Assembly (NCBI GenBank): GCA_032718475.1
Contig: JAUCBJ010008948.1
Location: 1 to 37,635 of the forward strand
Reading direction: 5' to 3'
Length of the DNA stretch: 37,635 nt
Source: Nemertoderma westbladi
Taxonomy: Eukaryota; Animalia; Xenacoelomorpha
The notes beneath the pieces were generated by a model. That model was not told the origin of the DNA, searched no databases, and worked only from the letters and a program-made list of their open reading frames with translations. A program made the translations under genes and the position numbers. Below are positions 996-32,863 of this stretch, piece after piece (position 1 is the stretch's first letter; each line of letters opens with the position of its first letter).

Positions 996-1261
996 TGTTA
1001 GAAGTTGAAGTGTATATATCGAATATCATTATAATATATTAGGCCTACTAGCCAAACATGACTGCAGATATATAAACCTAGCGCAGTACAGCAGTACTTC
1101 TGACAGTCATTGTAGATGCTCAGTACCGGTTGCCGGTAGCACAATGATAAACTAGAATGTAATACAACTAGAGTATTTAAATTTCCCGCCACACCCTTAA
1201 GATACTGATCATCGCATAATATATTGTCATACAGTTTAAAGGTAAGTTACAGTTTCTAACA
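996..1261 (-). repeat. Copia 3' LTR (266 bp)
   Basis: TGTTAGAA...TTCTAACA terminal inverted repeat; no differences seen against 18340-18605. Confidence 0.97.
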
Positions 1262-1270
1262 CTCCCACTT
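1262..1270 (-). other. Copia polypurine tract
   Basis: AAGTGGGAG on the minus strand directly abuts the 3' LTR. Confidence 0.8.
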
Positions 1271-1301
1271 GACAATAGTAATTATGCGACATTGAATTTA
1301 A

Positions 1302-4300
1302 TTACTCTAATGAAATAAGACCAATTTTTGAGCAATGATACTCAAATATCGCTTTCGTGAGTCCCTTTGTAAACATATCAGCAGTCATTTCCTTCGAGCT
1401 GCAGTATTTAACAGTAACAATATTGCGAGCAATTAGTTCTCGAATGAAATGAAACCTGACATCGATATGTTTAGTACGATTGTGGAAGACAGGGTTCTTC
1501 ACTAGTGCAATAGCACTCTGGTTATCCTCAAACATCATTACTGGTTCAACCTTTGACAATAATATGTTTGCTATCAAGATGCGCAACCACTTTGCCTCTT
1601 GGGCAGCTGAACTTAATGCAACATATTCTGCTTCTGTTGAAGATATTGCCACAATGTCCTGTCTCTTGCTTCTCCAGCTAACAGCACAATCTCCTACAAA
1701 GAATATATATCCAGATGTAGATTTACGAGTTTCAGAACATCCTGCATGATTAGCATCTGAGTATCCACTTGCAGAAATCACTGAAGTTTCTTTAGCATTA
1801 TATTTTAAACCTACATTCAATGTACCACGGATATAACGAAATACACGTTTTACCCCCTTCCAATGTGCCTCTGATGGATCTGACATGTATTTACTTAAAA
1901 TACCAATAGATGTAGCTAAATCTGGTCGAGTTCCAGTCATTGCATATGTGAGACTACCAATCGCTGTTTGATAAAGAGTTTTGTCAGCTGGTTTCTCATC
2001 ATCAGTTCTCTTCTCGAATTTCACATTTGGATCAATTGGGGTAGCAACTGGTTTGCAGTTTAGCATACCAAATCTCTCAAGTACATTTTCTAAGTACTTT
2101 GATTGATTTATAGTCATTGTCCGATTCTTACGATCCCTAGTAATCACCATTCCAAGAATATATTCTAATTCTCCTTTATCAACCATTTCAAATCGACTAG
2201 ATAATGTACATTTCTCTTGCATTAATATTTCATCATCATTTGATGCTATGAGAATATCATCTACATAGAGAACAATGATTACTACAATATCATTGACATA
2301 CTTGATATACATGCACGGATCAGCTTCATTTTGTTTGAATCCATTCGAAGTTAGATGCTTATCAATTAATTTATTCCAGCATCTAGAAGATTGTTTTAAA
2401 CCATAAATGGCCTTTTTTAGTTTGCAGACGAAATCAGGACGTTTGTCATCAACATAGCCCTCTGGTTGCTTCATATAGATTTCATTCTCAAGTTCCCCAT
2501 TTAGAAAGGCTGTTTTAACATCCATTTGATGTATTGACCAATTCAGTTGATTTGCAATAGCTAATACTGTACGAATAGCACTGTATTTAGCAACAGGTGC
2601 AAACACTTCATCATAGTCTATCCCATATTCTTGAGTAAAACCACGTGCCACTAGACGGGCTTTATAACGTTCAATGGAACCATCAGGTTGATATTTATAT
2701 TTGAGAATCCATTTGCAATCAACAATATTTGCATCTGCGGGTGCTTTTACCAAAGTCCACGTCTGATTCTTTATTAGAGATTCATATTCAGTATCCATTG
2801 CCTCTCGCCAATAATCACCATCATTTCGTGACCATGCTTCTTTGAGTGTTTGAGGTTCAATACTCTCCTCCTCTACAATCATGGCCTTCGGCCATTCAAT
2901 TGTACCCAATCGGTCTGGTGGCTTACGTTGACGTGTTGGATAATGACAAACACTTTTTGATGTTGATGATGAAGTCATTTCACCTTCATTGATTGTTTCC
3001 ACTACAGGTTCATCATCTAAATCAAACCCATGAAATACTTCACCATCAGATGAAGACACACTATCTCCTATAGTCTCAATCTCCATAGCCTCTTGATTAT
3101 TTACAATGTTTGATGTATGATCAACTATACTCGTCCTAGTCTGTTGAGCCTCTTGATTATTTACAATGTTCGATGTATGATCAACTATACTCTTCCTAGT
3201 CTGTTGAGCCTCTTTTACAACTAGCTCCCCTTGATCAACATCGGAACTTTCCTTCATATATGGAGGTTTTAATATTGGATTTGTGACACGATTTGACATC
3301 TTTGGAAAACTATTTTCAAAGAACTGTACATCACGACTCTCATAAATCCGCTTACTCTCTGGCTCATATAATCTATAACCCTTAGACTTTCCACTATATC
3401 CAATAAAGATGCACTTACGAGCCTTTGCATCGAGTTTCTTTCGTTTCTCTCGTGGTAGATGCATAAATGAATAACATCCAAAAATTCTCAAAGAACTTAC
3501 ATCTGGTTTATTGCCAAACCAAACTTCATAGGGAGTCGACCCTTGAACTGCATTTGTAGGACATCGGTTGCGAATATAAACAGCAGTGCTCACAGCTTCT
3601 GCCCAGAACTGTTTTGATAATCCTGCTGCATATAACATTGACAATGCAAGTTCCATAATTGTGCGATTCATGCGCTCTGCAACTCCATTTTGTTGTGGAT
3701 TATATGGAACAGTGAATTCATGCATAATTCCTTTAGATAAACAATACTCTTTTAATGAGGTTGAGTTATATTCGCCACCATTATCTGAACGTAATATCTT
3801 TACAGTTCGACCAATTTGGTTTTCAACTTTTGCTACAAAATCCTTGAAGCATTGAAATAGTTCACTTTTATGCTTCAATATATAAACTGTTGTATATCGT
3901 GATTTATCATCAATGATAGTAGCAAAATATTTAGAACCACCAATTGATTCAGTGTCCATAGGGCCACATATATCTGAGTGAACAATATCAACTAGATCAT
4001 CTGCCCTACGAGAAGAATGTGTAGGAAATGGGACCTTGTGCGATTTCCCTAGTGCACAACCCTCACAATTCGTATTGAAGGTTTCTATATCACAATTAAT
4101 TCCACTTACCATTTCATTATCCAATAATTGCTTTAAGCTATCAATTCCAACATGACCAAATCGTTCATGCCATATTTGACCAGGTAAAGAAGTAGCAACC
4201 AATGCAGAATTACCAGTATGTACTTCAAGTTTATACAAGTCACCATCCACTCTACCATTTGCAATTACTTGTTTTCCATAACCAATTTCACATTCTGACC

Positions 4301-5381
4301 TATAAAAATTTATATAAGCCCCTTTCTTTGTCAATGCACGAACTGAAAGAAGATTCTTCCCTAGTTTTGGAACATACAAAACTTCAGAAATACAAAGTTT
4401 AGCTCCGCAAGTAGATTGAATATTAACAATTCCTTTACCTATAGCATTTACATAACGTTTATCACCAAGATAAACATATTTGCAATGGTCAAATTTTTCA
4501 TAATTTATGAAACAATCTGACACAAATGTCATATGTTCGGTAGCTCCTGAATCAATATACCAATTATCACACCCAGTATTCGAATTGCTAATATGCAAAG
4601 CAAACGAACAGTTTTCAAGATAATCCAGCTCATTCAATACTGATTCACTACCTTTAACAAGAAGTCCCTCTGACTTCTTTCGAGTTGGACACGCTGAAGC
4701 CCAATGTGAATTATCACTGCAAAGTTGACAACCTCTTTGAGTACATTTCCGAGCAAAATGTCCCCCAACACCACACTTGAAACATGGAGCCTTGCTCTTC
4801 CGGAATCCTGGTGAAGAAGTGAACTGCTGCGGCTTGCTACTCCCACTGTCTTGTTGTCCCTTCTTTGCATAACCCTTTTGTTTCACTGATAAAAGGGCAT
4901 TCTCTGTTTCACTATTGTGTGTGTGCCGTGCACTTTCATTAAACAGTAAACCCTTTATATTGTCCCATGACATTTCATTGACAGCAACATCAATCGCTGA
5001 CAGCATGGAATTATACGATGATGGAAGTGATCCTAAAACAGTAAGTGCGAATGCCTTGTCCGTAATATTCTCTTCTGGATCAAGTTCATTAATCTTTGTG
5101 TAAAGATTCCTCATCTCCGTAACATGTTTCTCAACGTTGCCACCATTTGGCAACTGTTTATTGAAAAATTCGGTTCGAAGTCTAACAATCTTTAGCCATG
5201 ATTTTCGATCAAACTGTTCCTCTAATGCATCCCAAGTTTCCTTTGCAGTCGTTGCATCCTGTAAAAGCTTTTGCTGAATTGTCCGGTTATTTTTCCTTAT
5301 TTTTCCCGTAAAATACTCTGTAGTTGGTTTACCAGGCATAAAAAGGCCGTGTCCTTGCTGTACTGGTGTTTTAGTGGACAT
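1302..5381 (-). CDS. Copia Gag(C-terminal part)-PR-IN-RT-RNaseH polyprotein; about the first 41 codons come from the antisense BEL LTR
   Basis: Two CCHC knuckles (CFKCGVGGHFARKC, CQLCSDNSHWASAC); protease YIDSGATEHM; WHERFGH..CEGC; integrase HSDICGP/SDNGGEY/GVAERMNRT; SKGYRLY; RT MDVKTAFLNG/LYVDDIL; RNase H YSDAN/TEAEY/EDNQSAI/ADMFTK. No stops in 1359 aa. Confidence 0.96.
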   Translation of the reverse strand: MSTKTPVQQGHGLFMPGKPTTEYFTGKIRKNNRTIQQKLLQDATTAKETWDALEEQFDRKSWLKIVRLRTEFFNKQLPNGGNVEKHVTEMRNLYTKINELDPEENITDKAFALTVLGSLPSSYNSMLSAIDVAVNEMSWDNIKGLLFNESARHTHNSETENALLSVKQKGYAKKGQQDSGSSKPQQFTSSPGFRKSKAPCFKCGVGGHFARKCTQRGCQLCSDNSHWASACPTRKKSEGLLVKGSESVLNELDYLENCSFALHISNSNTGCDNWYIDSGATEHMTFVSDCFINYEKFDHCKYVYLGDKRYVNAIGKGIVNIQSTCGAKLCISEVLYVPKLGKNLLSVRALTKKGAYINFYRSECEIGYGKQVIANGRVDGDLYKLEVHTGNSALVATSLPGQIWHERFGHVGIDSLKQLLDNEMVSGINCDIETFNTNCEGCALGKSHKVPFPTHSSRRADDLVDIVHSDICGPMDTESIGGSKYFATIIDDKSRYTTVYILKHKSELFQCFKDFVAKVENQIGRTVKILRSDNGGEYNSTSLKEYCLSKGIMHEFTVPYNPQQNGVAERMNRTIMELALSMLYAAGLSKQFWAEAVSTAVYIRNRCPTNAVQGSTPYEVWFGNKPDVSSLRIFGCYSFMHLPREKRKKLDAKARKCIFIGYSGKSKGYRLYEPESKRIYESRDVQFFENSFPKMSNRVTNPILKPPYMKESSDVDQGELVVKEAQQTRKSIVDHTSNIVNNQEAQQTRTSIVDHTSNIVNNQEAMEIETIGDSVSSSDGEVFHGFDLDDEPVVETINEGEMTSSSTSKSVCHYPTRQRKPPDRLGTIEWPKAMIVEEESIEPQTLKEAWSRNDGDYWREAMDTEYESLIKNQTWTLVKAPADANIVDCKWILKYKYQPDGSIERYKARLVARGFTQEYGIDYDEVFAPVAKYSAIRTVLAIANQLNWSIHQMDVKTAFLNGELENEIYMKQPEGYVDDKRPDFVCKLKKAIYGLKQSSRCWNKLIDKHLTSNGFKQNEADPCMYIKYVNDIVVIIVLYVDDILIASNDDEILMQEKCTLSSRFEMVDKGELEYILGMVITRDRKNRTMTINQSKYLENVLERFGMLNCKPVATPIDPNVKFEKRTDDEKPADKTLYQTAIGSLTYAMTGTRPDLATSIGILSKYMSDPSEAHWKGVKRVFRYIRGTLNVGLKYNAKETSVISASGYSDANHAGCSETRKSTSGYIFFVGDCAVSWRSKRQDIVAISSTEAEYVALSSAAQEAKWLRILIANILLSKVEPVMMFEDNQSAIALVKNPVFHNRTKHIDVRFHFIRELIARNIVTVKYCSSKEMTADMFTKGLTKAIFEYHCSKIGLISLE
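3087..3214. repeat. 60-bp in-frame tandem duplication in the Copia IN-RT linker
   Basis: EAQQTR(K/T)SIVDHTSNIVNNQ occurs twice; 2 nucleotide mismatches between units. Confidence 0.9.
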
Positions 5382-6466
5382 AAAAGCTATTTCTTCTGTA
5401 TTTGTACTTTAGAGGACATAATCCGTAATTCCGTGACGTAAAAGCTCGATACTCTTGAAAACAGTGTCGCTACCATGACGACGGCTAGCAGCTGATATTG
5501 CCACGTCGACGTTTCTTTGTTTCTCTGTTCTCTCGTTGTTCAGGTTGACCAATCAGAGCGTTTGTTATCTCTGTGTTGGAGGTATATACAGAAACTCAGT
5601 AGTTCAGTGTTATGTTTTTGCCCAGAGCCTAAGATCCGGCTTTGGCACCTCCGTGTTTTCAGTTTTTAGTCTTACACTAGTAGGTTTAATTATAAAGGGC
5701 ATATATCCTTTAACTCATGGAATCACTGCTGACTGATCATACATACTGACTGCTGAAACATTGCAAACTCATAACAATCAGTGTTTTCATTGTTGCTTTA
5801 TACTGCTATTTACTGTCAGTTCTTCATAACATGGTTGATGAATTATTATATTTGGAATAACGATAAATAACCCCGAAACCCAATATTCTTGATATACCGA
5901 AGGTAAGAGAGAAGGGTTACAGATAAACGATTGTGACTTATGTTAAAGTGGTTTGAAGTGAATCTAATGTTATTTGATAGACCCTACATGAGTCAGTCTG
6001 TGTTCCTTTTATATGTGACTAAAATCAGTGAAGATTGGCAAATTAGTGTGCAGTATTGTGCAGCATTGTGTATGAGTGAGTCTGTTAAAGAAGCAATTCC
6101 TAAAGAATGCGCCATATATGTGAATTATAATTAAGCCATATCGTTGTGAGTAGTTTAAGTCATAACTCTGTTTATATAGATAAAGCGCCACGTCCTAAAG
6201 GAACTGTTAATATTACCGAAGGTGAATAATATTGTCAGAGATTATATAGTACTGTCAGTCGAATAATACATTAGGCTTACATAGCAATAAAATTAAACCG
6301 TCGAACCCAATCTCCCGGGAATATCCAGCGGGTGAATGATCGCGCACAGATTGGTTTCGACTAGTGTAGTGAATCAAATACTTGTCATAGACTAAAAACC
6401 GATTTAATATCTAGAAGACATCTTAATTTGGTGGGTTAAACTGCCAAAGGTCTGAAAGCGCGAACA
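5260..6466 (+). repeat. BEL/Pao 5' LTR (1207 bp)
   Basis: TGTAAAAGC...GCGCGAACA; matches 16642-17848 with about 6 substitutions seen by eye. Confidence 0.96.
5430..5610 (+). promoter_or_regulatory. Putative U3 promoter of the BEL LTR
   Basis: CRE-like GTGACGT (~5434), CCAATCAG (~5549), TATATA (~5583) and TCAGT Inr-like motifs (~5596, ~5603) in a plausible order; motif-only inference. Confidence 0.4.
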
Positions 6467-6488
6467 TTAAAGGATATAGCTTCTTTAT
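6467..6488 (+). other. Non-tRNA primer-binding position, complementary to LTR segment 5692-5713
   Basis: TTAAAGGATATAGCTTCTTTAT pairs with ATAAAGGGCATATATCCTTTAA: 18 Watson-Crick pairs, 2 G-U and 2 mismatches, with a perfect 12-bp run at the LTR boundary. No TGG follows the LTR. Confidence 0.7.
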
Positions 6489-6761
6489 TGCAGTAAGCAA
6501 TAAAGTTGAAAGTACCGGTCAACCGGTACATCTGTAGGTCAGTAGGCCTGACTACCTAACTACCCGGACCGGTACCTACAGCAGTACAGGTACAGCAGTA
6601 TTATTCGATTTTGATTGTTATATACCAGTAGGCCTTAATAATTTATCAGGGACTGCAGCCCTGGTTTTTTATTGAGATTTTTACTTATTTCTGTCAAGTT
6701 TTATTTGTTTGTAGGCCAGTATTGAACAGAAGGCGTGTAAACCTCATCAGATTGTACAGAC

Positions 6762-7332
6762 AATTTGTAGGCTGAGCTGTTGTCTGGCTGTTATTAAGTC
6801 TGAACGGATTACAGTGTGTGTAGAGCACTTGTCCGATTAAGTACGGTTAGGAAGTAGGGGCAGCCAATGCGGTAAGGTAAACCCCCAACTAAAGAATAAG
6901 TCGCACTACTGGGTTAGAGCGCATACTCCCTAATCATTTCGGAGTCTGCATGTCCTGTGGTTTATTTAGGCTTGAGAGTAGTCTGCCATCGTTTAGTCTG
7001 TACTTTGTTTGTGTAAGTCTGTACGGGTAGCGTATAATTTTATTTAGATAATTTGTAGGCTGGATAGTTGTCTGGCTGTTATTAGGTCTGAACGGATTGC
7101 CGCGTGTGTAGATCATCTGTCCGATTAAGTACGGTTAGGCAGTAGGGGCAGCGAACGCTGTAAGGTAAACCCCCAACTAAAGAATAAGTCGCACTACTGG
7201 GTTAGAGCGCATACTCCCTAATCATTTCGGAGTCTGCATATACCGTAGTTTGTTTAGGCTTGATAGTAGTCTGTCAGTGTTCGGTCTGTATTTTGTTTGA
7301 GTAGTTTGTACGCGTAGCGTACTATTTATTAT
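6762..7332. repeat. 288-bp tandem duplication in the BEL 5' leader
   Basis: Units start at 6762 and 7050 (AATTTGTAGGCTG); central ~80 nt identical, flanks diverged. Confidence 0.9.
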
Positions 7333-8264
7333 TCAGAGTTTATGCGATTATTCGCAACATTCAAGTCCCCAAGTTTGTTCCTACAGTAATTGTGTTTGTT
7401 ATACATACCGCTATAGTTAAATTAACCCCGGTACTACACGGGCTGCTCGGCGTAGGTAAAGACTGGTGATTTTGTGCATCGGTCACTCCAGCAGATGCCG
7501 TGGTTCTTTTAGCTGTTCAAGTATATTTAACTACTGATTATTTGTTGTACAAGTACTCGTACCTAATTTAGGGTTTAGTGTACAGTGCTTTCCGAGAATA
7601 ATTAGTGTAGACATTATATCTGTGTTGTAAAGTGGTTGATAGGCACATTCGATTAGCTCTATTAACTTCTAGGTAGGAACACTCCGTGATACATAACGTA
7701 GAACCTATAGCGATACGGCTATAGGTCGTCAGGCGGTGGTATTTTCCTATCTAGACAACGCAGTGTATTTACTACTACTTATTATTTCAAATACCGTAGT
7801 ACTCTGTCCGTTGTAATAACCGGTTATCTAACCCTTTGTTAGGCTGGTTTGTAGACTTCTTGTAAAATTACCCTAAAAATTCGTATTTTGTGTTTTTGTA
7901 AATTTTTGTGTTTATTTAGAGATTGTAATCTCAACCCGAATTGTACGTAATTAGTAGTATTAAGTAACTTAGGTAAATTAGAATTATTTGTTTTAGTGTC
8001 CTATACGTAATACTTCACTAAAAGCGCACCGCTTTGTGTAGTGATTACCCCAGAAATAATAACATTTATTTCAAACATTGACAAAACCCATTAAAACGGG
8101 TATATATTATAAATCAAATCTAACGATTTATAAATAGTAGGCCTACCATATAACCATTAGGTCTCAATATCAGTTGGATTACTGCTTAAATAACGGTAAT
8201 AAAGTAAGTTAAAGTAGTTAATAGTAACCCTAAAGTTCAGAAATTCAATTATTCTAAAATAATT

Positions 8265-8550
8265 GATATACCGGTATTTACGATAGGCCTATTATCTTAT
8301 TTCTATAAATCTAGGCTGAAATTATACCGGTACTTGTAATTAATTCTATTCTAGAATTATATATACTACAAACAGTAAGCTGTATACCGGTATTCCGATA
8401 GGCCTATTATATATTTATATATATTTGTGCTAAAATTATACCGGTATTCTGTGATAAACCTAGTCTGTAATAATAGTTATATATACTATAAGCATACCGG
8501 TATTCTAATATATTATATATCACGCTACACTGAGTAGCAGTACCGGTAAT
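8265..8550. repeat. Array of six TACCGGTA palindromes upstream of the BEL gag ATG
   Basis: Sites at 8269, 8325, 8385, 8439, 8495 and 8541 (spacing 46-60 bp); TAGGCCTA at 8284 and 8399. Confidence 0.85.
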
Positions 8551-8636
8551 TAATTACTAGGCTAGCAGTTAATACTGAGTTATTAGACTTACTCAGACTG
8601 TAATACAGCAGTAGACATTCAACGGTATACATAGTC

Positions 8637-11600
8637 ATGTCTGATACTAAGCAGAACCTGTCAGACAGTTTATTAGATGTAACTATCTGCGACTCAGATA
8701 GAGACGTACAAACGTCTGGTCGTAAATCCAGTTCACCTCCCACTGTGAGGAAGGTCATCCCTCCAGTAGTAATAACAGAACCTAGGCTGGTCCAACATCG
8801 TAGGTCTATCATAGGCACTCGAGCTCAGGTCAAGCGGGACCAAAAGGCAGCGGAACAGCAACAACCCGCTAGTCAAGAACTTATTCCTCAGCGGCCCAGC
8901 AGCTCCAGTAGTGAGGATACTGTAGAGCTGACACCCGAGCGCGGAGCAGAGATGACGGATGCGGTTTATACGGATCCCCTTCTCATCCTTCCTGCAGCCG
9001 TGCTCGCTGGGTTATTGATCGCGGTGGAAGAACACCAGATCGATTGGGCGAGAAGTCAACGGTCAACTAGAGATAGCTACGCGGGATACACGAGTGAAGA
9101 ACTGAAGTCTATTGTCGAGTCGCAATGGAACTTCCCCGGACCCGGACTCCCGTTTGATTTATCAGAAGCTGCCTGGGAAGACATACACCGGATGGGAGTA
9201 GCCAAGGAAACCATCGATCCAGCTGTATGGAAGAGGTCCGCAGCCGGATACGCCCAGGGATTCTTCAGCTCTATGGAGCGAGTAGAGAGACAACTGTTTC
9301 AACAACCTCAAGGACCTCAAGAGCAGGGATCGCTGCTTTATCAAGTTAGAGAAAGAGTTTTGCGGATTAGGCTAATCTTATCCGCCTTTGAGGAGGCTTC
9401 TAAAAGAAAACAAGACACGTCGTTGCAAGTTGCCGTAAAAACTTGGTTTCAACGGGTGAGTCGCCAGGTTCAAGGAGCAGCTCAGTAGAAAGCTCAGTTG
9501 GAGGAGCGCTCAACCCATGGAGAATCGACGGACGCTATTTTTTCCCAAGTGGAAAGTGAAGCGACGGCAGAGAGACCGCATAAGAAGGATGCCATTGATA
9601 TCTATCTGTCAGACTATCAGCGTTTTTTGGGAGATGATGAGTTGAGGAGAAGGTTAGAGGGACTTAGCCCTAATAGCGAAGGAGCCAAACTCGTGTTAGA
9701 TGCGATTGATGTGGATAGGTTAGCGGCGAACCAAGCTAAATTCGATGAACAACTCCGCATCGCTAGAGAACAAGAAGAACAAGTAAAGAAAAAACGTATA
9801 GAAGACAGAAAAGCAGCGGCAGTAGCAGCAGCAGTGGCAGCTGCAGAAGCAGAAACAAAAGCGGCAGCGGCAGTGGCAGCAGCAGAGCCAAAGGCGGCAG
9901 TAGCAGCAGCAAAGGCAGCGGCCGAAGCGGAAGGACGCAAGCGGGAGGCAGTGGCAGAAGCCGAACGGAGAGCGACTGAAGAAACCACCCAATTAGAATT
10001 GGAAAACATTCAGGAGAATCAAGACTGCATAAATAAACTGTTAACAGCTAGTAATATGCAGATGATGAATCGATCTACTCCCAAACGACAGGGATATACA
10101 TCATCTGAGGAAGGCGATACCACCGACACTGAAGGCGGAAGAAATCGATCTCGTCTAAGCAGACGTAAAAGAACATTCCACCGGCAGAAATTGCCTGATT
10201 TGCCTCCAGCTGTTAGAAGGCAACTAAATAACACCAAAGTAGGTAGTACAGAACCCACAGACCAAATAATTACAATAGAGAGACTCCCTACTATAGTAGA
10301 TGAGCCTGAAATAATTAGGCCTGTTCCCGAAGCTACCCTTTCGGTCGTAGGGACGCCTGTACTCCCTGAACCTACTTCTCAATTCCCTTTGCACAGCACT
10401 AAGCTACCTGTGCCCAGCAGAACAGTCCATGAGACAGTGCATACCCTGGACTCCGAGCGAAATATTCCAGATTTGTCGCCCGTTGTCCCTCGTCCGCCCG
10501 CTACAACGTTGGCGACTCCCGCTTCGGCGGTCGAATGGGTGGACGAGAGACGACGGGGGATGGATCTCCTGCTCGGGCAGATGCAGGAGACTGTCCAACA
10601 ATTCAAGGGCACAGTAAGGGAAAGTAGGCTAGAGTTGCAAGAAGTGCAGCAAAGTATCGCGCTTGAACGCGATAAATTAGTAAACACCCAAAAGGGTATA
10701 CCACCACCCTCTGTAACAATGTGTCAACCCGTTAGGTCTGAAGTATCTCATGCGCAAGGTGTGGAGCCTACACGCATTTATACTGCTAGCGAAGTAGAAA
10801 CTCCTATAGTGAACCCTATTAAGGGTGATTATAAACCTGTTGATAATGATATTCCATATAGACCTGATCATAATCCGAGAAATTTAGATACCAATAATTC
10901 TATATTCAATAATACGATGGCTCAAGAAAGTTTTACGCGTCAAATGGCTAGAACCGAAGCCCGTCAAGCGGTAAAGGTTGGAGAGATTGTCAAGTTCAAT
11001 GGAGATGAGATGAAATGGTTACCTTTTAATGAATATTACAAAGATAACATACAGAACTCTGTACTATCTAACGGAGAGAAACTTAGATTCCTCATCGAAT
11101 GTTTGGAAGGACCTCCCAAGTCAATGGCGTTAAAATTTATTGGACATCCAGATGGATTAAGACAAGTTTGGGATACACTAAACATCAGGTATGGTAATAG
11201 GAATGACATAGCTGGGTATTTGTATGCAAAATTAATGGCGCCCCGAAAGTTTCTTAGCAGCGGGATTATAGAGTTTTCCGATGAGATTCAGGAGATCTGT
11301 AGACAATTAGATTGGCTAGGTAAGTCTCATGAACACCAGAATTCTATGGTTGTAAGAGCCTTAGCATCTGCTTTGCCCAAGGGTGGAGTAGGTACACGCT
11401 GGGATAAGAAGGTGTTATATATGATGGAACAACAACGACGAGACCCTACCATGACTGATCTCATGTCATTCTTAGATAGAGAAGTGAAATTACAGCTCCT
11501 AAGGCAGTCCAGAGAGAAGACATTGGAAAACAAGGTAAGTGAGAAACCCGTTTCTAGGAGAAGGGTAACACCAGTATGTTATACCGACGACGGTGAAAGC

Positions 11601-13574
11601 CAAACCTCTCAAGGAGAGGACAGCGGGAAAGACACTGACAGGCCTTATTATGTCAATAAAATGCCTAAAGAACAGGTAAGTAAATCCAAGTCTCGACCCA
11701 ATGACAGAAGGGAACCGGTACAAAAAACCCCTCCTACGTCTCCTAAAGGAATTCAGGTGAGAAAGCCCGAGGAAAGAACAAGTGTGCACCACATAGCACA
11801 GGTTAAAGTAAGTAACATCAAGCCGAAATGTGTGCTGTGCGACGGGCCCCACCGTTTAAATGCGTGTGATAAATTCCTGAGGAAATCACTCGAGGATAGA
11901 CGTGAAGTCATGTGGGATAAGCGGTTGTGTTATAATTGCCTCAGACGAGGACACCAACGGCGAACCTGTAACTCCGACGCAAGGTGTGCAAAGTGCGGCG
12001 CAAATCATCATATCTTGTTGCACACGGAATTCGAACGAAACAGCCCGAGTCAGGTAAGTGAGTCCGAACTACATGTCCAATTCAGTGATGTGAACGACAC
12101 TGATCAATCTGAGATGGAAGGATTCTATACGGACGAGTTCTCCGACCAAAACGAATCCTGTTACCTAATAAACACCACCGCAGTGTATCGAGCACTCGTA
12201 CACGTACATGAGAAAGACACAGACAGCGACCTTACCTTAACTACTTCCGATCAACAACCATCTTGGAAAGCGCCAACTTCCAATATAGGAATCCGAGAGT
12301 TTCCTGTGGTGCAGGTAAGGGTGCACGGACCTAAACGGAGTTATGTAGTGAACGCCCTCCTGGACTCCGGCAGCACAGGAACATTCATCGATAAAGAGCT
12401 AGCCGAAGATATATTTGCTGGACAACCCAAGTTCCAAACTAAGCTCAACATGTCAGGCATTATGCAAGTTTGGAAATCTACAATAACAGCTGATTATTAT
12501 GTAGGCGCGTTGTCCACCCCACAAGACGAACTAGGATAACATAGCATAAGGTCAGTGAAAATGGTGGCTATAAAGAACTTCGCTACTACTCAAGCAGACC
12601 TTTATAATTGGGACGAGGATGAGAGCATCCAACATCTTAACATACCTCGATTCCAGACTGATTACCCTGGAGTGCAAATACTCATCGGCCAAAACGCGCA
12701 TGAGGCGCTGGAGACATTAGAGAAACGGCCTGCTCAACCGCAGCCCCTACAGACCTATGCGGTAAGAACTAGAGTAGGTTGGTACCTTACTGGACCTTCC
12801 CGTAGAACGCTCAGGGAAAGACTGCTTCAAGATCGCGTCTGCCAGGTGAGTGAATGGGAAGATGATACTAGTGAGGGAGACGACCCAACTGAGGGAACAC
12901 CACACTCCTCAGATAATGACAATCTTAGCTCCAATGTAGATCAATGGAGATATTGCCCCAAGAAGTTTAATCCAACGGACATCGCTTCCAGAGGAGCAAC
13001 TCCTCAAGAACTGACAGATACTATAGACCGGTTAGGTGAACCCGACTTCCTGAGTAAGGAGAATGAATGGCCTCCCCATCTTACTCCGACTGAGATTAGA
13101 CCAGCCAAGGGAGCGGAGAAAGTCGAACCTGAAACCCGGACGGGTGGATCGGAGTTATTTGAACCCGGGATAGATCTGTCGGTATTACATGTTGCCAGGG
13201 ACGACGCCGTGGATCTGGGCCTCCCCTCCGCGAGTGGATCCTTCATGAAGATCAGAGAGAGCGATTGGAGCTCTGGAACATCAGACGTCTCGCAGGGACT
13301 CTCACCTCTCCTGCAGAGAGCGACGGACCACTATAGCTCCTGGAATCGGCTTTGTGACGCCGTCATATACTTTGAGCGATGTTTCTATCGTCACTATTCC
13401 AGGACGAAGAGGAAACCTGGAATTGTATTCAGGATGCAGCAACTCAATCACCCAGTCGGTCGTTTGTGTTTATCGGAAGGGAATGGAGGACTCTCCGGAA
13501 ACTGTGGAAGGCAAGATTCTCTTCCCACGACCACCTCCCTAATCCTTCAAACATCTAGGGACTCCATAACGTAA
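8637..13574 (+). pseudogene. BEL/Pao Gag-protease polyprotein with RT deleted, RNase H C-terminal remnant, and two in-frame stops (9486-9488, 12537-12539)
   Basis: ORFs 8637-9488, 9498-12539 and 12555-13574 share one frame. Motifs: KFNGDEMKW..EKLRFLIECLEG..LNIRYGN (DUF1759-like); CVLCDGPHRLNAC..CYNCLRRGHQRRTC..CAKCGANHHILLH; ALLDSGSTGTFI; ILIG..AVRTRVGWYLTGP; then almost directly QWRYCPKKFNPTDIASRG and YSSWNRL. No YVDD. Confidence 0.9.
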
Positions 13575-14096
13575 CAACATATGGAGTGGGTGTGTGACTC
13601 TATTATTTTATATTATTTTATTATTTTTATATTTATGTATGTATTACTATGTAATTCTATTATAATCGTTTTCTTTAATTTTATTCAGTAGAATGTTATT
13701 TTAGCGATTATTTAGTAGATTAGTGCAATATATATTCGCGTTTATTACTTAATTACGTATATATTATATTTAATGCGACGGCAAGAAATAATTCTTTTCC
13801 TTCTTCCTTACTGTCCGTATTACATTACAAATACGTAACTACAGTAAGATGAAATGTCCGTACTTATTAAAGTACAATAAAGCCACTACTATATTCAAGT
13901 ATTATTGGTAGGCAGAGTATTAGGAATGCAAAGTTCAGATCCTCGTGTCTCGGCTAAACCAAGCTCTGGGTAGACCTTGGAAACGACTTGCCTCTTCACA
14001 CTGACATTGCTTCGTGCGATATTGCTCTCATACCGTATATTAAATAATACATATAGTAGCGTGATGTCCCTTTAACAGTAGCGTATAACGCAAAAT

Positions 14097-14410
14097 AAAT
14101 CTGTTAAACCCTTTGACCATCTGTAATTCTAGTCGATTAAGATATCGCGGCACCCACCGATATACTTGAAAGACAAATTCTAGAATCAGTGGTTAACGTC
14201 CCCAGACAAGTTCTGGAATAAATCGGTGCCCATCTCAAATATTAATTATTTAATATTTGCAAATCTAATAAATCAAAATCTGTAAAATTCAGATCCTTCA
14301 GCAATTCTAGTCAATTAAGATATCGTAGCATTTACCGATATTCTTAAAAAGACAATTGTCATAGAATTAAGGATCTTGTGTCCCCAGACATATTCTAGAA
14401 TCAAAATATG
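14097..14410. repeat. Diverged ~180-bp tandem duplication in the BEL internal non-coding region
   Basis: AAATCTGT..AATTCTAGTC(G/A)ATTAAGATATCG..ACCGATAT..AAAGACAA..GTCCCCAGACA occurs twice. Confidence 0.8.
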
Positions 14411-15229
14411 TCAATTTAATTATCAAATAATAAAATTTCAGGGAATAAATTTAAATTCATGCCTTTTAATGAATTTAATAAATTGCCATTTTTACGCAAT
14501 TTATAACATTCCCAAAATTCCATTAATTAATAGATCAAGGGAGCGGAGATTTATCTTATTATGTGTATGAGTGTGCGAAAGTCTCCCAAACATAGTCAAT
14601 AGCCGATAAAATTCATAAAGTCATGTATAAAACAGAACATTGACTATTAAAGAATACTATTAAATAACATCCCAGATCTGTATGCATTGGAATTGCTCTA
14701 ATTCTACCGCTAGCTTTGCATAATGTCACCATAGCAACAACCACGCTAGAATTAGAATTGAGTTAAAAGAACAATGGAAAGCTTGTCCCATTGAATAGCA
14801 TAGGGAATAAATAGTGCACTGATAGTATCCAAGGATACATAATAATACAGTGACATTCTGGAAGGCATTGACTAACGGACAAGTGACCCGAGTGTGTGTA
14901 ATTTGTGACAAGTTGTGTGTGTGGTACTTGTGAGTTTATAGGCGAATGTTACTACTAAGGTGTGTTTACAGTAGCTAGTCGCAATCGTAAAAGTAACCTA
15001 ACTCTCCAAGGAAAACCTGAAGTACATCTAAGCCTTTGGGACGGACAGTCGAGTGACTTGTGCCGGTTGTCGTTGTCGTTGTGCGGCTACGTCGTTGGCG
15101 AAAGTACAGCGGCGACGACACATCGGCGCTGAGGATCTCGTACTGTCCGGGGGTTAATTGGAGTAGGCAGCGACGCTCGCTAGCCTGAATATAAACTCAT
15201 TATAATATGGATAAACTCATATAGCAGAT

Positions 15230-15930
15230 ATGGTTGAGTTGATAGAAGATGATCTTGGTATCGGGGAGCGATATACTCTACTTTTGCAAGCGTTTGTTGA
15301 TAGCTTAATACGCGGTGACGTTAGTCTAACTGCTGCGGAGGACGATGGTCGTTATATCGAACCGACAATGTCCCAAGTGCAGCTCTCGCGAGAGTTGGAC
15401 TATAGAAAATTCGCTGCTCGCTACACGCATTGTAATGGTATGTATATGGACTTCTTAACCATTGACCATTCTATCGATTTACACAATACGGACTATGTCG
15501 ACTATATATCCTGCCCAGCGGAGTCTGAACCATAAACTGAAATTCGAATGCGAAAATTCTATTCGAAATCGGCTCGAAAGAAAAGACATTAAAGAAACAA
15601 ATAAACGCGGTAACTCCAACATATATTTGGAATTCTTGATAGAATCATTGTAACTACAAATAAATATCATCCGCGTTTCCCCTACCAGACGTGCGTCTTG
15701 GGTATTATTACGGTAAATGCCCTAGACCCAGCCAATAAACGGAAAGACATAAACATCCACGGAAACGTTGTGTTAAATACAGTTGTGTTCGTTATATTTA
15801 CTGGAGTTTCGAGCGAAACTTGTTTGACGTATCACCTATGCTCACTCGGCTCTAACGATCCTAGAGTAAACCTACGATCAGAGTCCCGGAATACTCGGTC
15901 AAACCTCCTCATTCCTTAGTTGGACCTCAG
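15230..15930 (+). pseudogene. Possible heavily eroded BEL integrase relic
   Basis: One frame with stops (ORFs 15230-15535 and 15698-15919 are co-framed). EDDGR..QLSRE, EIRMRKFY..AR and VIFTG..SLGSNDPRVNLR..I..D are spaced like BEL DxDG, LRxxYW..GR and IFTC..SLxTDxFxxALRRF..IxSD. The position before the PPT fits. Weak, by-eye similarity. Confidence 0.4.
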
Positions 15931-16633
15931 ACCTGCGATCCTGGTGGTGTCGCGGATCCTCGCGGACGGTATTCACTGTTCAAAGATCTAGTGCTACTCT
16001 AACAATTAATCGGTAACACTCCGACAGTGATTTCTAGCTAGCCGCCCATCTTACCTAGCCGGATTGTGACGCGGACACCTAATATCACTATCCAACCGTA
16101 TGGTCGTCCCCGTTTAACGCGATACAACCCCTCATCAAGGTGAAGGAGAGCTTTGTACGAAACGAGTTAAACGCTATTCTATAAAGATCAAAAGAGAAAC
16201 CTGCGTTTGTTCAGATAAACGTAAGTTATAACAGTAAGTCCAGTCGATAAACGAATTGGCCTTATCTCAATTCGATTGGGAAATCCAGAATCTCTAAGAA
16301 GTTATTGAACTTGGACGATCCTATTCTCTGCGAGAGTTTTTGGATGAACGTATCCAGCTACGAGCGGAGGAAAATCAGCTCGAGGAGAAGCATATCGAAA
16401 CGGCAGATACCTCGACCATAAACCTACACCTTCTGATGCAATCATATTGCACCCTTCACCCAGGAGTTATGGCCCTCCTAGTAAAGTGGCTCCCCCCAAA
16501 GAGAAAAAGACTCTTGCTAGCCTCAAAAAACTGCGTAAACGCCGTCTGCGTAAGAAAGACTAACTGTTTAGAGTATCTTTATATTTTAGAAACTGTGATT
16601 TTGTATATTTTATAGACTTAAATCCCATTTTCT

Positions 16634-16641
16634 GGGAGCGG
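16634..16641 (+). other. BEL polypurine tract
   Basis: GGGAGCGG directly precedes the TG of the 3' LTR. Confidence 0.75.
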
Positions 16642-17848
16642 TGTAAAAGCTTTTGCTGAATTGTCCGGTTATTTTTCCTTATTTTTCCCGTAAAATACTC
16701 TGTAGTTGGTTTACCAGGCATAAAAAGGCCGTGTCCTTGCTGTACTGGTGTTTTAGCGGACATAAAAGCTATTTCTTCTGTATTTGTACTTTAGAGGACA
16801 TAATCCGTAATTCCGTGACGTAAAAGCTCGATACTCTTGAAAACAGTGTCGCTACCATGACGACGGCTAGCAGCTGATATTGCCACGTCGACGTTTCTTT
16901 GTTTCTCTGTTCTCTCGTTGTTCAGGTTGACCAATCAGAGCGTTTGTTATCTCTGTGTTGGAGGTATATACAGAAACTCAGTAGTTCAGTGTTATGTTTT
17001 TGCCCAGAGCCTAAGAACCGGCTTTGGCACCTCCGTGTTTTCAGTTTTTAGTCTTACACTAGTAGGTTTAATTATAAAGGGCATATATCCTTTAACTCAT
17101 GGAATCACTGCTAACTGATCATACATACTGACTGCTGAAACATTGCAAACTCATAACAATCAGTGTTTTCATTGTTGTTTTATACTGCTATTTACTGTCA
17201 GTTCTTCATAATATGGTTGATGAATTATTATATTTGGAATAACGATAAATAACCCCGAAACCCAATATTCTTGATATACCGAAGGTAAGAGAGAAGGGTT
17301 ACAGATAAACGATTGTGACTTATGTTAAAGTGGTTTGAAGTGAATCTAATGTTATTTGATAGACCCTACATGAGTCAGTCTGTGTTCCTTTTATATGTGA
17401 CTAAAATCAGTGAAGATTGGCAGATTAGTGTGCAGTATTGTGCAGCATTGTGTATGAGTGAGTCTGTTAAAGAAGCAATTCCTAAAGAATGCGCCATATA
17501 TGTGAATTATAATTAAGCCATATCGTTGTGAGTAGTTTAAGTCATAACTCTGTTTATATAGATAAAGCGCCACGTCCTAAAGGAACTGTTAATATTACCG
17601 AAGGTGAATAATATTGTCAGAGATTATATAGTACTGTCAGTCGAATAATACATTAGGCTTACATAGCAATAAAATTAAACCGTCGAACCCAATCTCCCGG
17701 GAATATCCAGCGGGTGAATGATCGCGCACAGATTGGTTTCGACTAGTGTAGTGAATCAAATACTTGTCATAGACTAAAAACCGATTTAATATCTAGAAGA
17801 CATCTTAATTTGGTGGGTTAAACTGCCAAAGGTCTGAAAGCGCGAACA
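16642..17848 (+). repeat. BEL/Pao 3' LTR (1207 bp)
   Basis: Direct repeat of 5260-6466, followed by TSD CATCC. Confidence 0.96.
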
Positions 17849-18092
17849 CATCCTTTATATAGCAACGCAATTCCGGATCAATAGCTAGTGCAATAGTTGT
17901 GCGTGCGCGAGTTTTCCTTCGCATAAACGCAGCTCTACCAGCTCCTTCCGGTGGAGTAGGATCTCCAATGACAAACTCCCACAAATCGTGATGTTCCAAT
18001 GTAAGCTGCATTGTGTAACGCCATTCACGATAGTTTTCGGACCGCAGTTTCTCGATTTTCTCTATCTTTAAACCGCCAATATCATCCGCCAT
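17849..18092 (-). CDS. Copia Gag N-terminus (81 codons), cut off by the BEL insertion
   Basis: MADD..IEKLRSENYREWRYTMQLTLEHHDLWEFV..ARTTIALAID..YIKD. Removing the BEL element and one TSD joins it in frame to ATTAKETWDAL, giving an intact 1398-aa ORF. Confidence 0.93.
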
Positions 18093-18325
18093 TTCAGTAA
18101 ACTATCTGTGTGCAATTAATTATATCAGCAACAAAGGAGTAAACAATATCGATTTGTTAAATTTCAGTCACTGATCCTTTCCCACTACTGCTACCGCTTG
18201 CCGGTACCGGTAACCACGATAATTAGCGATTTTAGTATTTGCAAAGTTTCCTTGCATACTGGTACTCATTACAATTCATTACAATTAACAGTACCATACA
18301 GCCATAGCATCTGACTGCCTGTTAC

Positions 18326-18339
18326 CTGGGCCCATAACC
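18326..18339 (-). other. Copia primer-binding site (half-tRNA-iMet type)
   Basis: GGTTATGGGCCCAG directly after the 5' LTR; same as the Drosophila copia PBS, which pairs with an internal fragment of initiator tRNA-Met. Confidence 0.9.
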
Positions 18340-18605
18340 TGTTAGAAGTTGAAGTGTATATATCGAATATCATTATAATATATTAGGCCTACTAGCCAAA
18401 CATGACTGCAGATATATAAACCTAGCGCAGTACAGCAGTACTTCTGACAGTCATTGTAGATGCTCAGTACCGGTTGCCGGTAGCACAATGATAAACTAGA
18501 ATGTAATACAACTAGAGTATTTAAATTTCCCGCCACACCCTTAAGATACTGATCATCGCATAATATATTGTCATACAGTTTAAAGGTAAGTTACAGTTTC
18601 TAACA
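18340..18605 (-). repeat. Copia 5' LTR (266 bp)
   Basis: Matches 996-1261; flanked by the PBS and TSD GAATA. Confidence 0.97.
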
Positions 18606-22516: not shown

Positions 22517-23807
22517 CTATCGGGGGATCTGTCTGCTTGTGGTAGCTGCCAAAATATACAATAAAATGATTCTATATAGGATTAGGCCTCACATAGAGAA
22601 ACTACTGCGTAAGAGCTAAAACGGATTTCGACCAAGTAGATCAACAATAGCTCAGATACTTGCACTGCGGAGACTGATTGAAGGAATCAAGTCAAAGAAT
22701 CTCCCCGCAGTCATGACTTTTGTGGACTTCAATAAGGCATTCGACTCCATCCATAGAGGTAAAATGCTTGAAATCCTAAGTGCTTATGGAATACCAGAAG
22801 TAATCGTTGCTGGCATTGGATTGTTATATTGTGACACAGAAGCACAGGTACTCTCACCAGATGGTGAAACTGAGTTTTTCTCAATCCTGGCTGGCGTACT
22901 GCAAGGTGACACATTAGCACCATTACTATTTGTAATTGTACTGGATTACGCAATGAGGACGGCCACAAAGGGTGAAGATCTGGGATTCACACTTCAAGAA
23001 CGCAGAAGTAGTAGATATCCGGCAACTACAGTCACAGACACCGACTTTGCGGATGACATCACCCTGCTCTCTAATACGCTAGCAGATGCACAGCTTCTAC
23101 TAAATAACGTGGAGAGGGCTGCTAAGGAGGTTGGATTGCATATAAATGCTACCAAGACCGAATTCATGACTTTTAATGTTGATGGAAACTTGACAACCAT
23201 TGATAATAATCAACTAAAGCTAAGGAAGGTTGACGACTTCCAGTACCTAGGATCATGGATAGAGAGTAGCAAAAAGGACATAGAAGTTAGGAAAGCAAAG
23301 GCTTGGGTAGCTCTATCAAAAATGGATACCATCTGGAAATCAGATTTCCCCAGGCACCTGAAAACTAAGTTCTTTCGAGCCACAGTGGAAAGTGTATTTT
23401 TATACGGGGGTGAGATCTGGACACTGACTAAATCACTTGAACAACGAATTGATGGTTGCTACACAAGACTACTAAAGGCAGCCCTAAACATCAGCTGGAG
23501 ACAACACATGACAAATACCGAGCTTTATGTTACAATACCACCTGTATCAACCACCCTCCATGAACGCAGATTAAGATTCAGTGGGCACTGCTGGCGAAGT
23601 AAAGACGAGGTTATACCAGATCTACTTTTCTGGCAACCAACTCATGGAAAGCATAGTCGTGGATGACCAGCCATGACATATATAGATCAACTTGAAAGGG
23701 ATACTGAACTTGGGAGAAACGAAATTGCGACAACTATGGAGAATCGGGAAGCCTGGAAGGATCTCATTTCCACTGTCCGAGTTCGCTCGACTTAGTAGTA
23801 GTAGTAA
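22515..23807 (+). mobile_element. 5'-truncated RTE-clade LINE, RT pseudogene with (TAG)n tail
   Basis: DYRGICLL..NGFRPSRST..FVDFNKAFDSIHR..GVLQGDTLAP..FADDI..FQYLGS..RRLRFSGHCWR; in-frame stops at 22617 and 23664; natural stop at 23793-23795 followed by TAG repeats. Confidence 0.9.
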
Positions 23808-27465: not shown

Positions 27466-28695
27466 CTATTTATATTTTCGTTTAAATATGTTAACATTAA
27501 CAGCCATACGGAAACTTTCAACAAATAGATACATGAGATAGAAGTTTAGACTGAAGACAATCATAAATATATTAGATATTAGAGTTGATAAATTATTAAT
27601 AACTAATACCTTTTCATAAAACGTACGTTCGTCTAATGTAGATAAAGGATCCATACTTCCTGCTATATAGTCCAGGTATCTTTTTACAATATGCCAGATT
27701 ATACGGGCACAATCTTTTGCGCACATTAGTGTTCCAGTAATTAGCATCATATTTACAGCGGCAGACATTTTATGATTGCTTGGCGAATTTGGATTAGCCC
27801 TCATTAGTTTTCTTAACTTATAAATCATAAGACCGTTTATAGAAAAGACACCTACAATTTGAATGGTTTTTCTTATGGGAAAGAAATACTCCAGAAACTT
27901 ATTTGCTCTAATGAAGTGGACATTATATGAACTGAAATAGTAAAGTAAAGCCCAATATTGCTTTTCACCATTTACATATCGAATTTCCCCTTTATACATA
28001 AATACATAGGGCCAGTACAGACATGCTGTGTATATAAATATAACTACTATAATCCCATATATCATGTTATTATTCTTTAATTTTGTATCCTTATACCATA
28101 CCGGAAAATAAAGGGCTGCAATACGTTCTGCACCCATAATTAAGGTGAGTGTAGAATCTCCAAATTGTACACACCATGCAAATATAGGCCAATAACACTG
28201 GCATATCCAGCAGACAACGTTATAACAATGAAATTTCCAAATTACATTGTTGTTGATAATTACTGCAACATTATCGAAGTAGAACCACCCAGCATTTTGA
28301 CCTTGCTTTAATATTTGGCCAAACGAGATTAGAATATCGAAAACAGACTTTAACATCAACGTTCTATAAAACAGAGTATTGAATGATTTTTCCTTCACAA
28401 TTGTTACAATAATTAATATATTCCCAATCAGACCTAATGTATTATATGTTGATATATAGGGTGTGAGAATAAAATTTCTAACAAATTTCGTAGCATTGTA
28501 ATAAATCTCATATCCCTTTAGCATCTCATTGTAATCAAATTGGAGAATAGTTTGATAATATTTGTGGTACCGATTTGATTTGGTTGTGTTCACATTAACT
28601 GTTTGGTTGATACCATCATCGGTAGTAGCAGAAACAAAGATAAAAATACAACAAAAATACAATAACAATTGAATGTGAAAGTTTGTTGCAAACAT
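27466..28695 (-). CDS. Intronless class-A (rhodopsin-like) GPCR, divergent peptide-receptor/chemoreceptor-like, 409 aa
   Basis: Predicted signal peptide and N-glycosylation sequons (NQT, NTT, NAT); TM1 GLIGNILII; TM2 SVFDIL; TM3 end AERIAALYFP; TM7 SLNFYLMY and helix-8 SFR; seven hydrophobic segments; ATG to stop intact. Confidence 0.88.
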   Translation of the reverse strand: MFATNFHIQLLLYFCCIFIFVSATTDDGINQTVNVNTTKSNRYHKYYQTILQFDYNEMLKGYEIYYNATKFVRNFILTPYISTYNTLGLIGNILIIVTIVKEKSFNTLFYRTLMLKSVFDILISFGQILKQGQNAGWFYFDNVAVIINNNVIWKFHCYNVVCWICQCYWPIFAWCVQFGDSTLTLIMGAERIAALYFPVWYKDTKLKNNNMIYGIIVVIFIYTACLYWPYVFMYKGEIRYVNGEKQYWALLYYFSSYNVHFIRANKFLEYFFPIRKTIQIVGVFSINGLMIYKLRKLMRANPNSPSNHKMSAAVNMMLITGTLMCAKDCARIIWHIVKRYLDYIAGSMDPLSTLDERTFYEKVLVINNLSTLISNIFMIVFSLNFYLMYLFVESFRMAVNVNIFKRKYK

Positions 28696-29139
28696 TTTTT
28701 AGTATGTCCAAATCACAAGAATAAGATAATGAGGCTAAAATAAAAGAATTTATACATTTAATGAACATCCACAGTACAGTATATGGTTATTCATTACCCA
28801 CTCACATCGGCATAGAATAACCACATCAAATTGCAATCACCAGAGCGTACTATGCAAATTTCAAGTAAAAAATATCAACATGGATTCGGAGATGAAATAT
28901 CTTATATATAATAATATAAACTAGAAGCTCTCTAATGTTTCTTTTGTACTGGTTATTTTACAAGATATATATTAGGATTTATTTTTATGAGATATTTTTA
29001 CTAGATTTTAAAATACACTCTCTGACTGCATAAGTGTAATGTCAGAAAGTAGGCCTTCCGGTACCTATAGCTGTATACCTATAGCTGTATATTTCAAAAG
29101 TCAGATAGTACTGTATATTGATAGGCTATACTAAAAAGT

Positions 29140-31127: not shown

Positions 31128-32290
31128 GACAATAATATTTGGAATATTCCAACTGTGTCATACACAGGAAATTTAAATATCGCAGTCACATTGTCAATTG
31201 TGTATTTTGAAATTATTTCCGGCCTTTTATATAATTTTATTTTTACTCAAATAAATGCTGGCTCGACTGGTCTGCGTTCTTGTGCGCTGTAATAAATTAA
31301 CATATCATTGTTCATTCCCTCAGATGGTATTACGATAGTAGAGGAATACATCCGTACACCCCCCTTCTAAGTTCTCTCTCTATTATAAGGTTAGTGTAAT
31401 AGGCAGTGTTAGTGGTCAAAATCGTTTCAAATACTTGGAGTTAAGTGTACTTTAAAAATTAATGGAAAATAACAATTTATAGTGGCCTTGTTTTCTAACC
31501 CACCCATTAAACGAAAGTCAATTTCATAAGTACGTATTTACAGGACATTTACCCGGACAATTCCTACCCAGACAATTGCGACCTGGACAAATCCGACCTG
31601 GAAAATTCCGACCCGGACAATTCCAACCCATTCAAAGATCTAATGAATTTTTATGGGTCGGAATTATCCTAGATCGGAATTTTCTGAGTCGGAATTGTCC
31701 AGATCCAAATAAATAAAAATAATTAATAGAAATTACCGGTAATCAATAACAAAAATCTGTGTTCTAGAACACTAATATTTTTCATTAATTGATAGCTAGT
31801 ATTATAACACTTTCAAAAAAATAGCAAAAACTAGCTAGGATTATACACATTTGGTGGGGGTGTGCCCAAGACACACTAGTACCGAATCAAGGTGTACTAA
31901 ATAACAGGTCATGCAGCGAGATGGGTATTGAAATTAGCGGGGGCCTAACTAAGCAATAGCGTAACTACTGTATAGTACTCGTTTCTACTGTATAATACAA
32001 TTCCAGAATTCCATAGAGTTGATTAGTAAATGCGACACCCGTGTTTTATAAATGTTGGTTGTGTGACTAGCTATTTGCTAGAGTAGGCTACTCTACATAT
32101 AAATACTAGAAATATTGGATGCAACGTAATGTTGTTATTGTACGATAATTAAGTAAAATATTTGTCAAAACACAAAGAGGAACACCTTAAATACATTGTA
32201 CTGTACAAGCCTAATACATATATCAGAAGCCCGCCTATTGTTACTAGGACCACACTCGGGTCCTCAGCGTCACACTATTCGTGAAGAAAG

Positions 32291-32863
32291 ATAGGGAGAA
32301 AGTGTAGTGTTGCTGGTTGTCGTACGGGGTACAAACCCACTGAAGATAATCCTGGTCCCGGTCCTAATCCCAAGGTAACAATACACAGATTTCCCACGGA
32401 CCCAACCGAACTTCAGAAGTGGCTACATCGGCTACCGAATTTTATAGACCCTGATGCAGTCACCGGAAATATGGGAGTGTGTGGATTGCACTGGCCTGGT
32501 GGTTGTGCCATGAGGACAGCACCCGGCGGTGCTTTATCACCAGTGAATGCACCAAGCATCTTCATAACGAAACTGAACCGTGGCGGTTTGGTTTATCCGG
32601 ATGATGAGTTGGTTTCTTTTTGCTTTCTAGTATTCAACTTCTTTCGACAATCACCAACACAGTTCTGCCGTACGAGTTTCGTGCAAGCTCTGAAGAATAT
32701 TGCCGAGATATATTTCACTGATGGAATGTTTACTTTTCCGTTGTTCAGGAAACTCTCAAACGTGTTGTTTCATAATTTCTGCCACAATACGGTGGGCGCT
32801 GATGTGACACCGAAGCGGTGCAGGAACGACAAAGACCAGTCCAAAGTTCGAAAACTCCGATAA
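32291..32863 (+). pseudogene. THAP domain fused in frame to the P-transposase C-terminus (start codon reads ATA)
   Basis: (ATA)GRKCSVAGC..HRFPTD..KWL..VCGLHW..NAPSIF (C2CH THAP) runs directly into ITKLNRGGLVYP..SNVLFHNFC..KVRKLR; catalytic core absent. Confidence 0.85.

Follow-up and report, generated by a model that had tools for sequence, protein, structure and literature searches.

A BEL/Pao retrotransposon with a candidate self-primer in its own long terminal repeat

Self-priming of reverse transcription, in which the primer is the element's own RNA, has been reported or predicted for the Tf1/sushi, Tcn1 and copia TAR lineages of retrotransposons with long terminal repeats (LTRs) (available sections of PMC6317226 and PMC4600332). 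In Tf1 and Tf2 of S. pombe, Tj1 of S. japonicus and the wider Tf1/sushi group of Ty3/gypsy elements there is no tRNA primer-binding site (PBS); the post-LTR sequence is complementary to a segment of the element's own LTR, and the element's RNA primes after a cut by reverse transcriptase (RT)/RNase H (PMC4600332 and PMC5341516, in the parts open to us). [quoted passage not shown]

BEL/Pao elements are described differently. The reference description of the family Belpaoviridae by the ICTV gives an 18-nt PBS for tRNA-Arg or tRNA-Gly, and treats BEL/Pao replication as tRNA-primed and poorly understood (PMC8742986). The term 'PBS' does not occur in the main text, as available, of three BEL/Pao surveys whose supplements might list sites (PMC554778, PMC3118150 and PMC6238403), and the available parts of PMC3601003, PMC10886601 and PMC8220671 report no BEL/Pao self-priming. 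Our literature search, with subscription journals, Repbase and the original Suzu paper outside its scope, found neither BEL/Pao self-priming nor a splice-built primer, which does not prove that either is absent from print.

Here we analyse a window of 37,635 nucleotides from Nemertoderma westbladi (contig JAUCBJ010008948.1) that carries a BEL/Pao element. Like Tf1/sushi elements, it has no tRNA PBS, and its post-LTR sequence is complementary to a segment of its own LTR. We think it quite likely that the element self-primes in some form. The more specific reading, that the 5′ LTR copy of the primer at 5702–5713 is cut in cis and primes minus-strand DNA synthesis, has in our estimate a probability of about 0.58.

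Anatomy of the element and its genomic setting

The BEL/Pao element spans 5260–17848 and has split an older resident of the locus:

5255–5259, no strand: left target-site duplication (TSD) CATCC
5260–6466, plus strand: 5′ LTR, 1207 nt, with TG...CA ends
8604–13574, plus strand: broken gag–protease frame, with an ATG at 8637 and stops at 9486 and 12537
16634–16641, plus strand: polypurine tract (PPT)-like stretch adjoining the 3′ LTR with no spacer
16642–17848, plus strand: 3′ LTR, also 1207 nt with TG...CA ends
17849–17853, no strand: right TSD CATCC
996–18605, minus strand: host copia element split by the BEL insertion, with identical 266-nt LTRs and TSD GAATA

The two LTRs differ at six positions and CATCC stands on both sides, in agreement with the original prediction of young LTRs and an intact TSD. 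At four of the six differences (5635, 5796, 5830 and 6041) nearly all contigs of the family agree with the 3′ LTR, which makes the changes private to the 5′ LTR of the window. The family contigs contain many young copies and cover the LTR/PBS junction region in all four runs examined.

The frame at 8604–13574 encodes DUF1759 (Pfam match, 5e-13), a zinc knuckle, a protease and a remnant of an RNase H tail. DUF1759 is the BEL-type gag domain of Belpaoviridae and is present in homologs of the window protein, most of which also contain PF05380. The element further shares with that family its LTR size, two LTRs with TG...CA ends, a short (5-bp) TSD, the PPT, the zinc knuckle and the protease. The Gypsy-like order of RT, RNase H and integrase that also defines the family has been deleted in this copy: no RT or integrase match was found inside the element, and only the RNase H tail remnant is left. 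With two stops and without RT or integrase, the window copy is a non-autonomous derivative. About 3 kb at 13575–16640, containing a 106-aa open frame (15215–15535), stands in place of RT and integrase, and in the 2.1-kb leader a stretch of about 288 nt is duplicated in tandem, with 87% identity, at 6758–7337. Membership of Tf1/sushi would call for a Ty3/gypsy chromovirus polyprotein, whereas the window protein is BEL-type; the element would work like Tf1 but is not a Tf1 member.

The copia element is itself young, and the BEL insertion point lies within its gag. Its PBS lacks the leading T and is presumably of the initiator-tRNA-half type. Elsewhere in the window are an element with long terminal inverted repeats (31556–33972) and a THAP-domain frame (32285–32863), a frame at 234–782 with a weak tyrosine recombinase match that is possibly a DIRS- or Crypton-like fragment, an RT fragment (22620–23666) and a 7TM receptor-like frame (27466–28698).

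Pairing between the LTR and the post-LTR sequence

Directly after the 5′ LTR, where Belpaoviridae would have the 18-nt site for tRNA-Arg or tRNA-Gly, the window element has no TGG and instead a sequence that matches its own LTR:

5702–5713, plus strand: candidate self-primer core, 12 nt, contiguous (no intron), pairing with 6467–6478
6467–6478, plus strand: PBS core, at offset 0 from the LTR end and without TGG
17084–17095, plus strand: the primer core again, in the 3′ LTR, where the two LTRs match without a difference
5697–5700, plus strand: predicted primer extension, pairing with 6479–6482 past a bulged A5701
6483–6505, plus strand: predicted 9-bp hairpin adjoining the extended primer duplex

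Recomputing the pairing in register reproduced every coordinate of the original prediction: the LTR end at 6466 with no TGG after it, 12 Watson–Crick pairs between 5702–5713 and 6467–6478, and a mismatch at the next position, where C5714 stands opposite A6466. The continuation fared less well. It had been given as two mismatches, two G–U pairs and six more pairs, a register that is correct; a better one bulges A5701 and pairs GGGC 5697–5700 with 6479–6482, and the hairpin at 6483–6505 competes with the six outer pairs, beating them in five of six folds and largely in the sixth too. Nucleotides 5692–5696 are predicted to pair further only when this hairpin opens, and extension past the core is weakly above control (12/300). 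Relatives have an 11–12-bp core, a primer-side bulge and a short further helix, and the window element shows the same design. Given the CA at the end of both LTRs, 5713 is where a primer taken from here would have to end.

At 12 nt and offset 0, the match lies within the range of Tf1-type elements (at least 10 nt, offset 0–5) and within the rule derived from plant Tcn1 and TAR/Houba/Osr-1 elements. Among Tf1/sushi elements the complementary LTR segment measures 11–12 nt; in Tf1 itself it is 11 nt long, with a known cut site. When the LTR was shuffled 3000 times with dinucleotides preserved, no anchored run of 12 arose and the maximum was 11, seen twice; a complement of at least 12 nt within the preceding 1207 nt occurs at 16 of 36,398 window positions, the PBS included. 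None of 500 shuffled LTRs gets to the duplex energy of −20.0 kcal/mol, but 140 of 1451 internal 22-mers, mostly GC-richer, find the same energy somewhere in the LTR. The signal therefore rests on position and run length, not on energy, and duplex energy by itself was dropped as a statistic.

The family varies at 305 places; the 40 with the best support were examined and all lie outside 5692–5713 and 6467–6488, a sample too incomplete for claiming conservation of the primer block. A 1-nt deletion at 5694 occurs in some family contigs. At this position the summed depth is 2–4 times that at 5796 and 2–6 times that at 5635 (runs X1, X3 and X4), an excess that is only a hint, contig depth not being copy number. 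ARAGORN found no tRNA in the window, a search of the window itself and not of a host tRNA set; Rfam gave no match in 5200–8700, which is not a comparison of the PBS with host tRNAs; and a 22-nt LTR-end pattern had no match in metagenome contigs.

Covariation and split primers among relatives

A protein search found BEL polyproteins of about 30% identity to the window protein. An alignment of 30 of these led to 100 loci, of which 79 lie on metagenome contigs and 21 on genome contigs, and scanning viral contigs found no relatives. The 21 genome contigs (L080–L100) are filed under bacterial genomes and carry animal-type BEL elements; they are probably host contamination. Fourteen of the 100 loci, in which two LTR copies fix the LTR 3′ end, were used. 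Near-duplicates (L016, L099, L026, L039, L060 and L077) and loci with an unclear LTR end (L014, L015 and L031) had already been dropped, and the remaining loci had no usable second LTR end.

There is no TGG after the LTR in 13 of the 14 relatives, in common with the window element and unlike the tRNA-primed Belpaoviridae of the ICTV description. A normal TGG PBS in coding relatives had been named as evidence that would count against self-priming; only one begins with TGG, an insect-type control with an own-LTR complement score of 4. Under strict splice rules, 10 of the 13 others have a complement of 11–15 nt to their own LTR at offset 0–4. In two of these (L045 and L085) the match is contiguous; in the other eight (L010, L018, L020, L028, L050, L082, L083 and L096) the predicted primer arises only across a GT–AG junction inside the LTR, of the form GT[AG]AG..YAG. 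The three misses score 10 (L061) and 11 (L090) with a looser acceptor rule, and 8 (L087). None of 208 cross-family pairs reaches 10 nt, and among 375 pseudo-PBS controls two get as far as 11 nt; the offset range, splice filters and PPT pattern were fixed after viewing the data, with the controls under the same rules. L082 and L083 are separated by two compensatory changes that affect both sides of paired positions. Thus the post-LTR sequences differ, and each finds its partner in the LTR of its own element (10/13 versus 0/208), the covariation that the original prediction called for, seen here among relatives and not within the window's own family. It supports the earlier proposal that this BEL lineage primes without tRNA.

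A further 64 loci, in which the LTR end is not fixed, contain spliced matches of at least 11 nt in 12 cases, compared with 1 of 253 mismatched pairs. Contiguous matches do not discriminate in this set, since 11-nt matches occur in 26 of 253 mismatched pairs; the contiguous L008, L023 and L031 are tentative for this reason, and L071 is included solely on account of its alignment to L065.

The geometry of the duplex points the same way. Of 27 elements, 24 have a PBS offset and a PPT spacer that are both zero or both non-zero. A duplex lying at the real starting point of DNA synthesis would be expected to give such agreement, although a p-value on this count overstates it because kin share offsets and the PPT pattern was adjusted by visual inspection. 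In the window element both are zero. In other respects it stands apart: its primer ends in AA, where the matched end reads AC, AT or ACT in 12 of 13 non-TGG relatives, and 753 nt separate its primer from the LTR end, compared with 44–216 nt in relatives. In a quick gag–protease tree its protein falls outside the clade of the relatives, on a long branch joined to another long branch; in profile scores it shows a modest preference for the relatives' type over the insect type (262 versus 210 bits). The named BEL/Pao clades (Sinbad, Sparrow, Surcouf and Suzu) are told apart by RT/RNase H phylogeny, and this copy has no RT. The window element likely belongs to the self-priming clade.

Tf1 needs no splicing to make its primer, whereas most BEL relatives split theirs with a predicted intron. 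The window element has the contiguous form: the best spliced match in its LTR is 9 nt under loose rules and none exists under strict rules, and no spliced primer was found via its donor-like sites at 5903 and 6222. The same eight bases precede each of these two sites, whose role may be in splicing a gag mRNA or in making the repeat region shorter; no joints at them were seen in family contigs. No GT–AG joint in the LTR occurs in contigs of run X5, which is only guessed to be RNA and is uninformative either way. One family includes both forms: L065 has the intron and L071 lacks it, with the two exon ends joined base-exactly and matching the PBS. Contiguous types occupy several separate places in the quick gag–protease tree, three of them tentative. 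Intron loss as in L065/L071 is a plausible route to the contiguous primer of the window, which is likely a form that lost its LTR intron. The 3′ LTR of L020, and L028 at 2079–2772, show a second candidate intron upstream of the primer intron, with which the primer would form at the later exon junction. On balance, we favour the view that a widespread animal BEL/Pao branch dropped tRNA priming and has the spliceosome build the primer, which would license reverse transcription, and that intron-less forms recur through back-copying of a spliced repeat, the window element being one, with its primer already assembled.

Proposed priming route and its alternatives

The preferred route begins at a promoter in the 5′ LTR, for which motif matches suggest several candidate elements:

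5549–5553, plus strand: CCAAT-like box, candidate upstream promoter element
5583–5588, plus strand: TATATA, candidate TATA box, with the primer 3′ end 131 nt downstream
5659–5664, plus strand: initiator-like TCAGTT
5691–5696, plus strand: TATAAA, overlapping the distal primer extension
6286–6291, plus strand: AATAAA, candidate polyadenylation signal, 572 nt past the primer

Transcription would start upstream of the primer, near 5606–5661; use of TATATA at 5583 would place the start site (TSS) near 5606–5613. The 5′ part of the RNA would fold onto the PBS through the 12-bp core, the bulged A and about four more pairs stacked on the hairpin, and be cut after A5713, probably by RNase H, with RT and RNase H supplied in trans by a coding partner. 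DNA synthesis would begin opposite the last LTR base and copy back to the cut, and a strand jump to the 3′ repeat would restore the primer sequence. In most relatives, splicing out the LTR intron would assemble the primer. Tf1-type elements serve as the model for the cut, for the enzyme and for the start site. Even so, the primer of Tf1 is the extreme 5′ end of its RNA, whereas that of the window likely lies 50–100 nt inside, and, unlike Tf1, the window copy has no RT and must be served in trans. No TATA-like motif stands about 30 nt upstream of 5702, the candidates being those at 5583 and 5691.

Self-priming might also use a primer from another copy, either the 3′ LTR at 17084–17095 (through a circle) or an LTR transcript acting in trans, solo LTRs included; we regard this as rather unlikely. 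The 3′ copy has the same sequence and would be part of the transcript whatever the TSS. TATAAA at 5691, if used, would give a TSS at about 5720 and a primer-less RNA, which could exclude the 5′ copy. Family contigs contain subfamilies that diverge upstream of 5663 and of 5834; some have a different LTR upstream of 5663, where they join the window sequence (loose ends in X3 and X4, a joint in X5), and so lack the motifs at 5549 and 5583. Folding support for a cis duplex over about 750 nt is also fragile, the core duplex being predicted in just one of six folded fragments of 830–1000 nt. Retention of an intron through replication would require one repeat copy to be spliced and the other unspliced, for which either assignment is possible. 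Against a 3′ or trans source, a cut inside the 3′ repeat would take away sequence needed in strand transfer, and Tf1-type elements use the 5′ copy (PMC4600332 and PMC5341516, available parts). The upstream TATA-like site of the window also has the spacing seen in four relatives (127–148 nt upstream of the primer in L020, L028, L082 and L083), other relatives having shorter spacing or no such motif. A TSS downstream of 5713, which had been proposed as a refutation, would not alone refute self-priming and would alter the model instead, because the 3′ copy is transcribed regardless and Tf2 uses a second TSS that gives primer-less RNA (PMC5341516, in its available part).

We consider it distinctly unlikely that a host RNA, such as a tRNA half or small RNA, is the primer and that the LTR–PBS pairing has a regulatory role, as a fold that hides the site or signals the splicing state. 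Such a primer would fit the tRNA-Arg or tRNA-Gly given for the family (PMC8742986) and the tRNA halves that prime some copia elements (available sections of PMC10886601 and PMC6317226). Yet post-LTR sequences vary freely among families and track their own LTR rather than a few tRNA types, the paired end coincides with the position of priming and goes along with the PPT spacer, and the sole TGG element is without a self-complement. Least probable is an unused relic or convergence in the window family, even though its clade may self-prime, with poor priming or another route, or a chance match through AT-rich quasi-palindromes: both paired segments are of this kind and fold alone into small hairpins, and the AA end, the 753-nt spacing, the long branch and the contiguous matches among mismatched pairs without a fixed LTR end would agree with it, but in the window element two LTR copies and the TSD define where the LTR ends, chance matches are rare (0/3000 and 16/36,398), the copy is young and its family abundant, and no insertion at 6466/6467 occurs among the 12 best-supported indels of the family contigs (97 others were called).

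Priming by the 5′ copy in cis makes exact predictions, an RNA end at 5713 and a DNA start at 6466, and the natural pair L065/L071, with and without the intron, allows a direct comparison of the role of splicing. Self-priming would explain why tRNA-based annotation finds no PBS here. The window copy itself appears to be a somewhat atypical, intron-less and non-autonomous example, with Tf1-like logic in another superfamily, BEL/Pao rather than Ty3/gypsy. If the reading is true, a large share of BEL/Pao diversity primes without tRNA and each of the three LTR superfamilies includes self-priming elements. A splice-assembled primer would then couple host RNA processing to the start of reverse transcription, a control point for hosts and elements.
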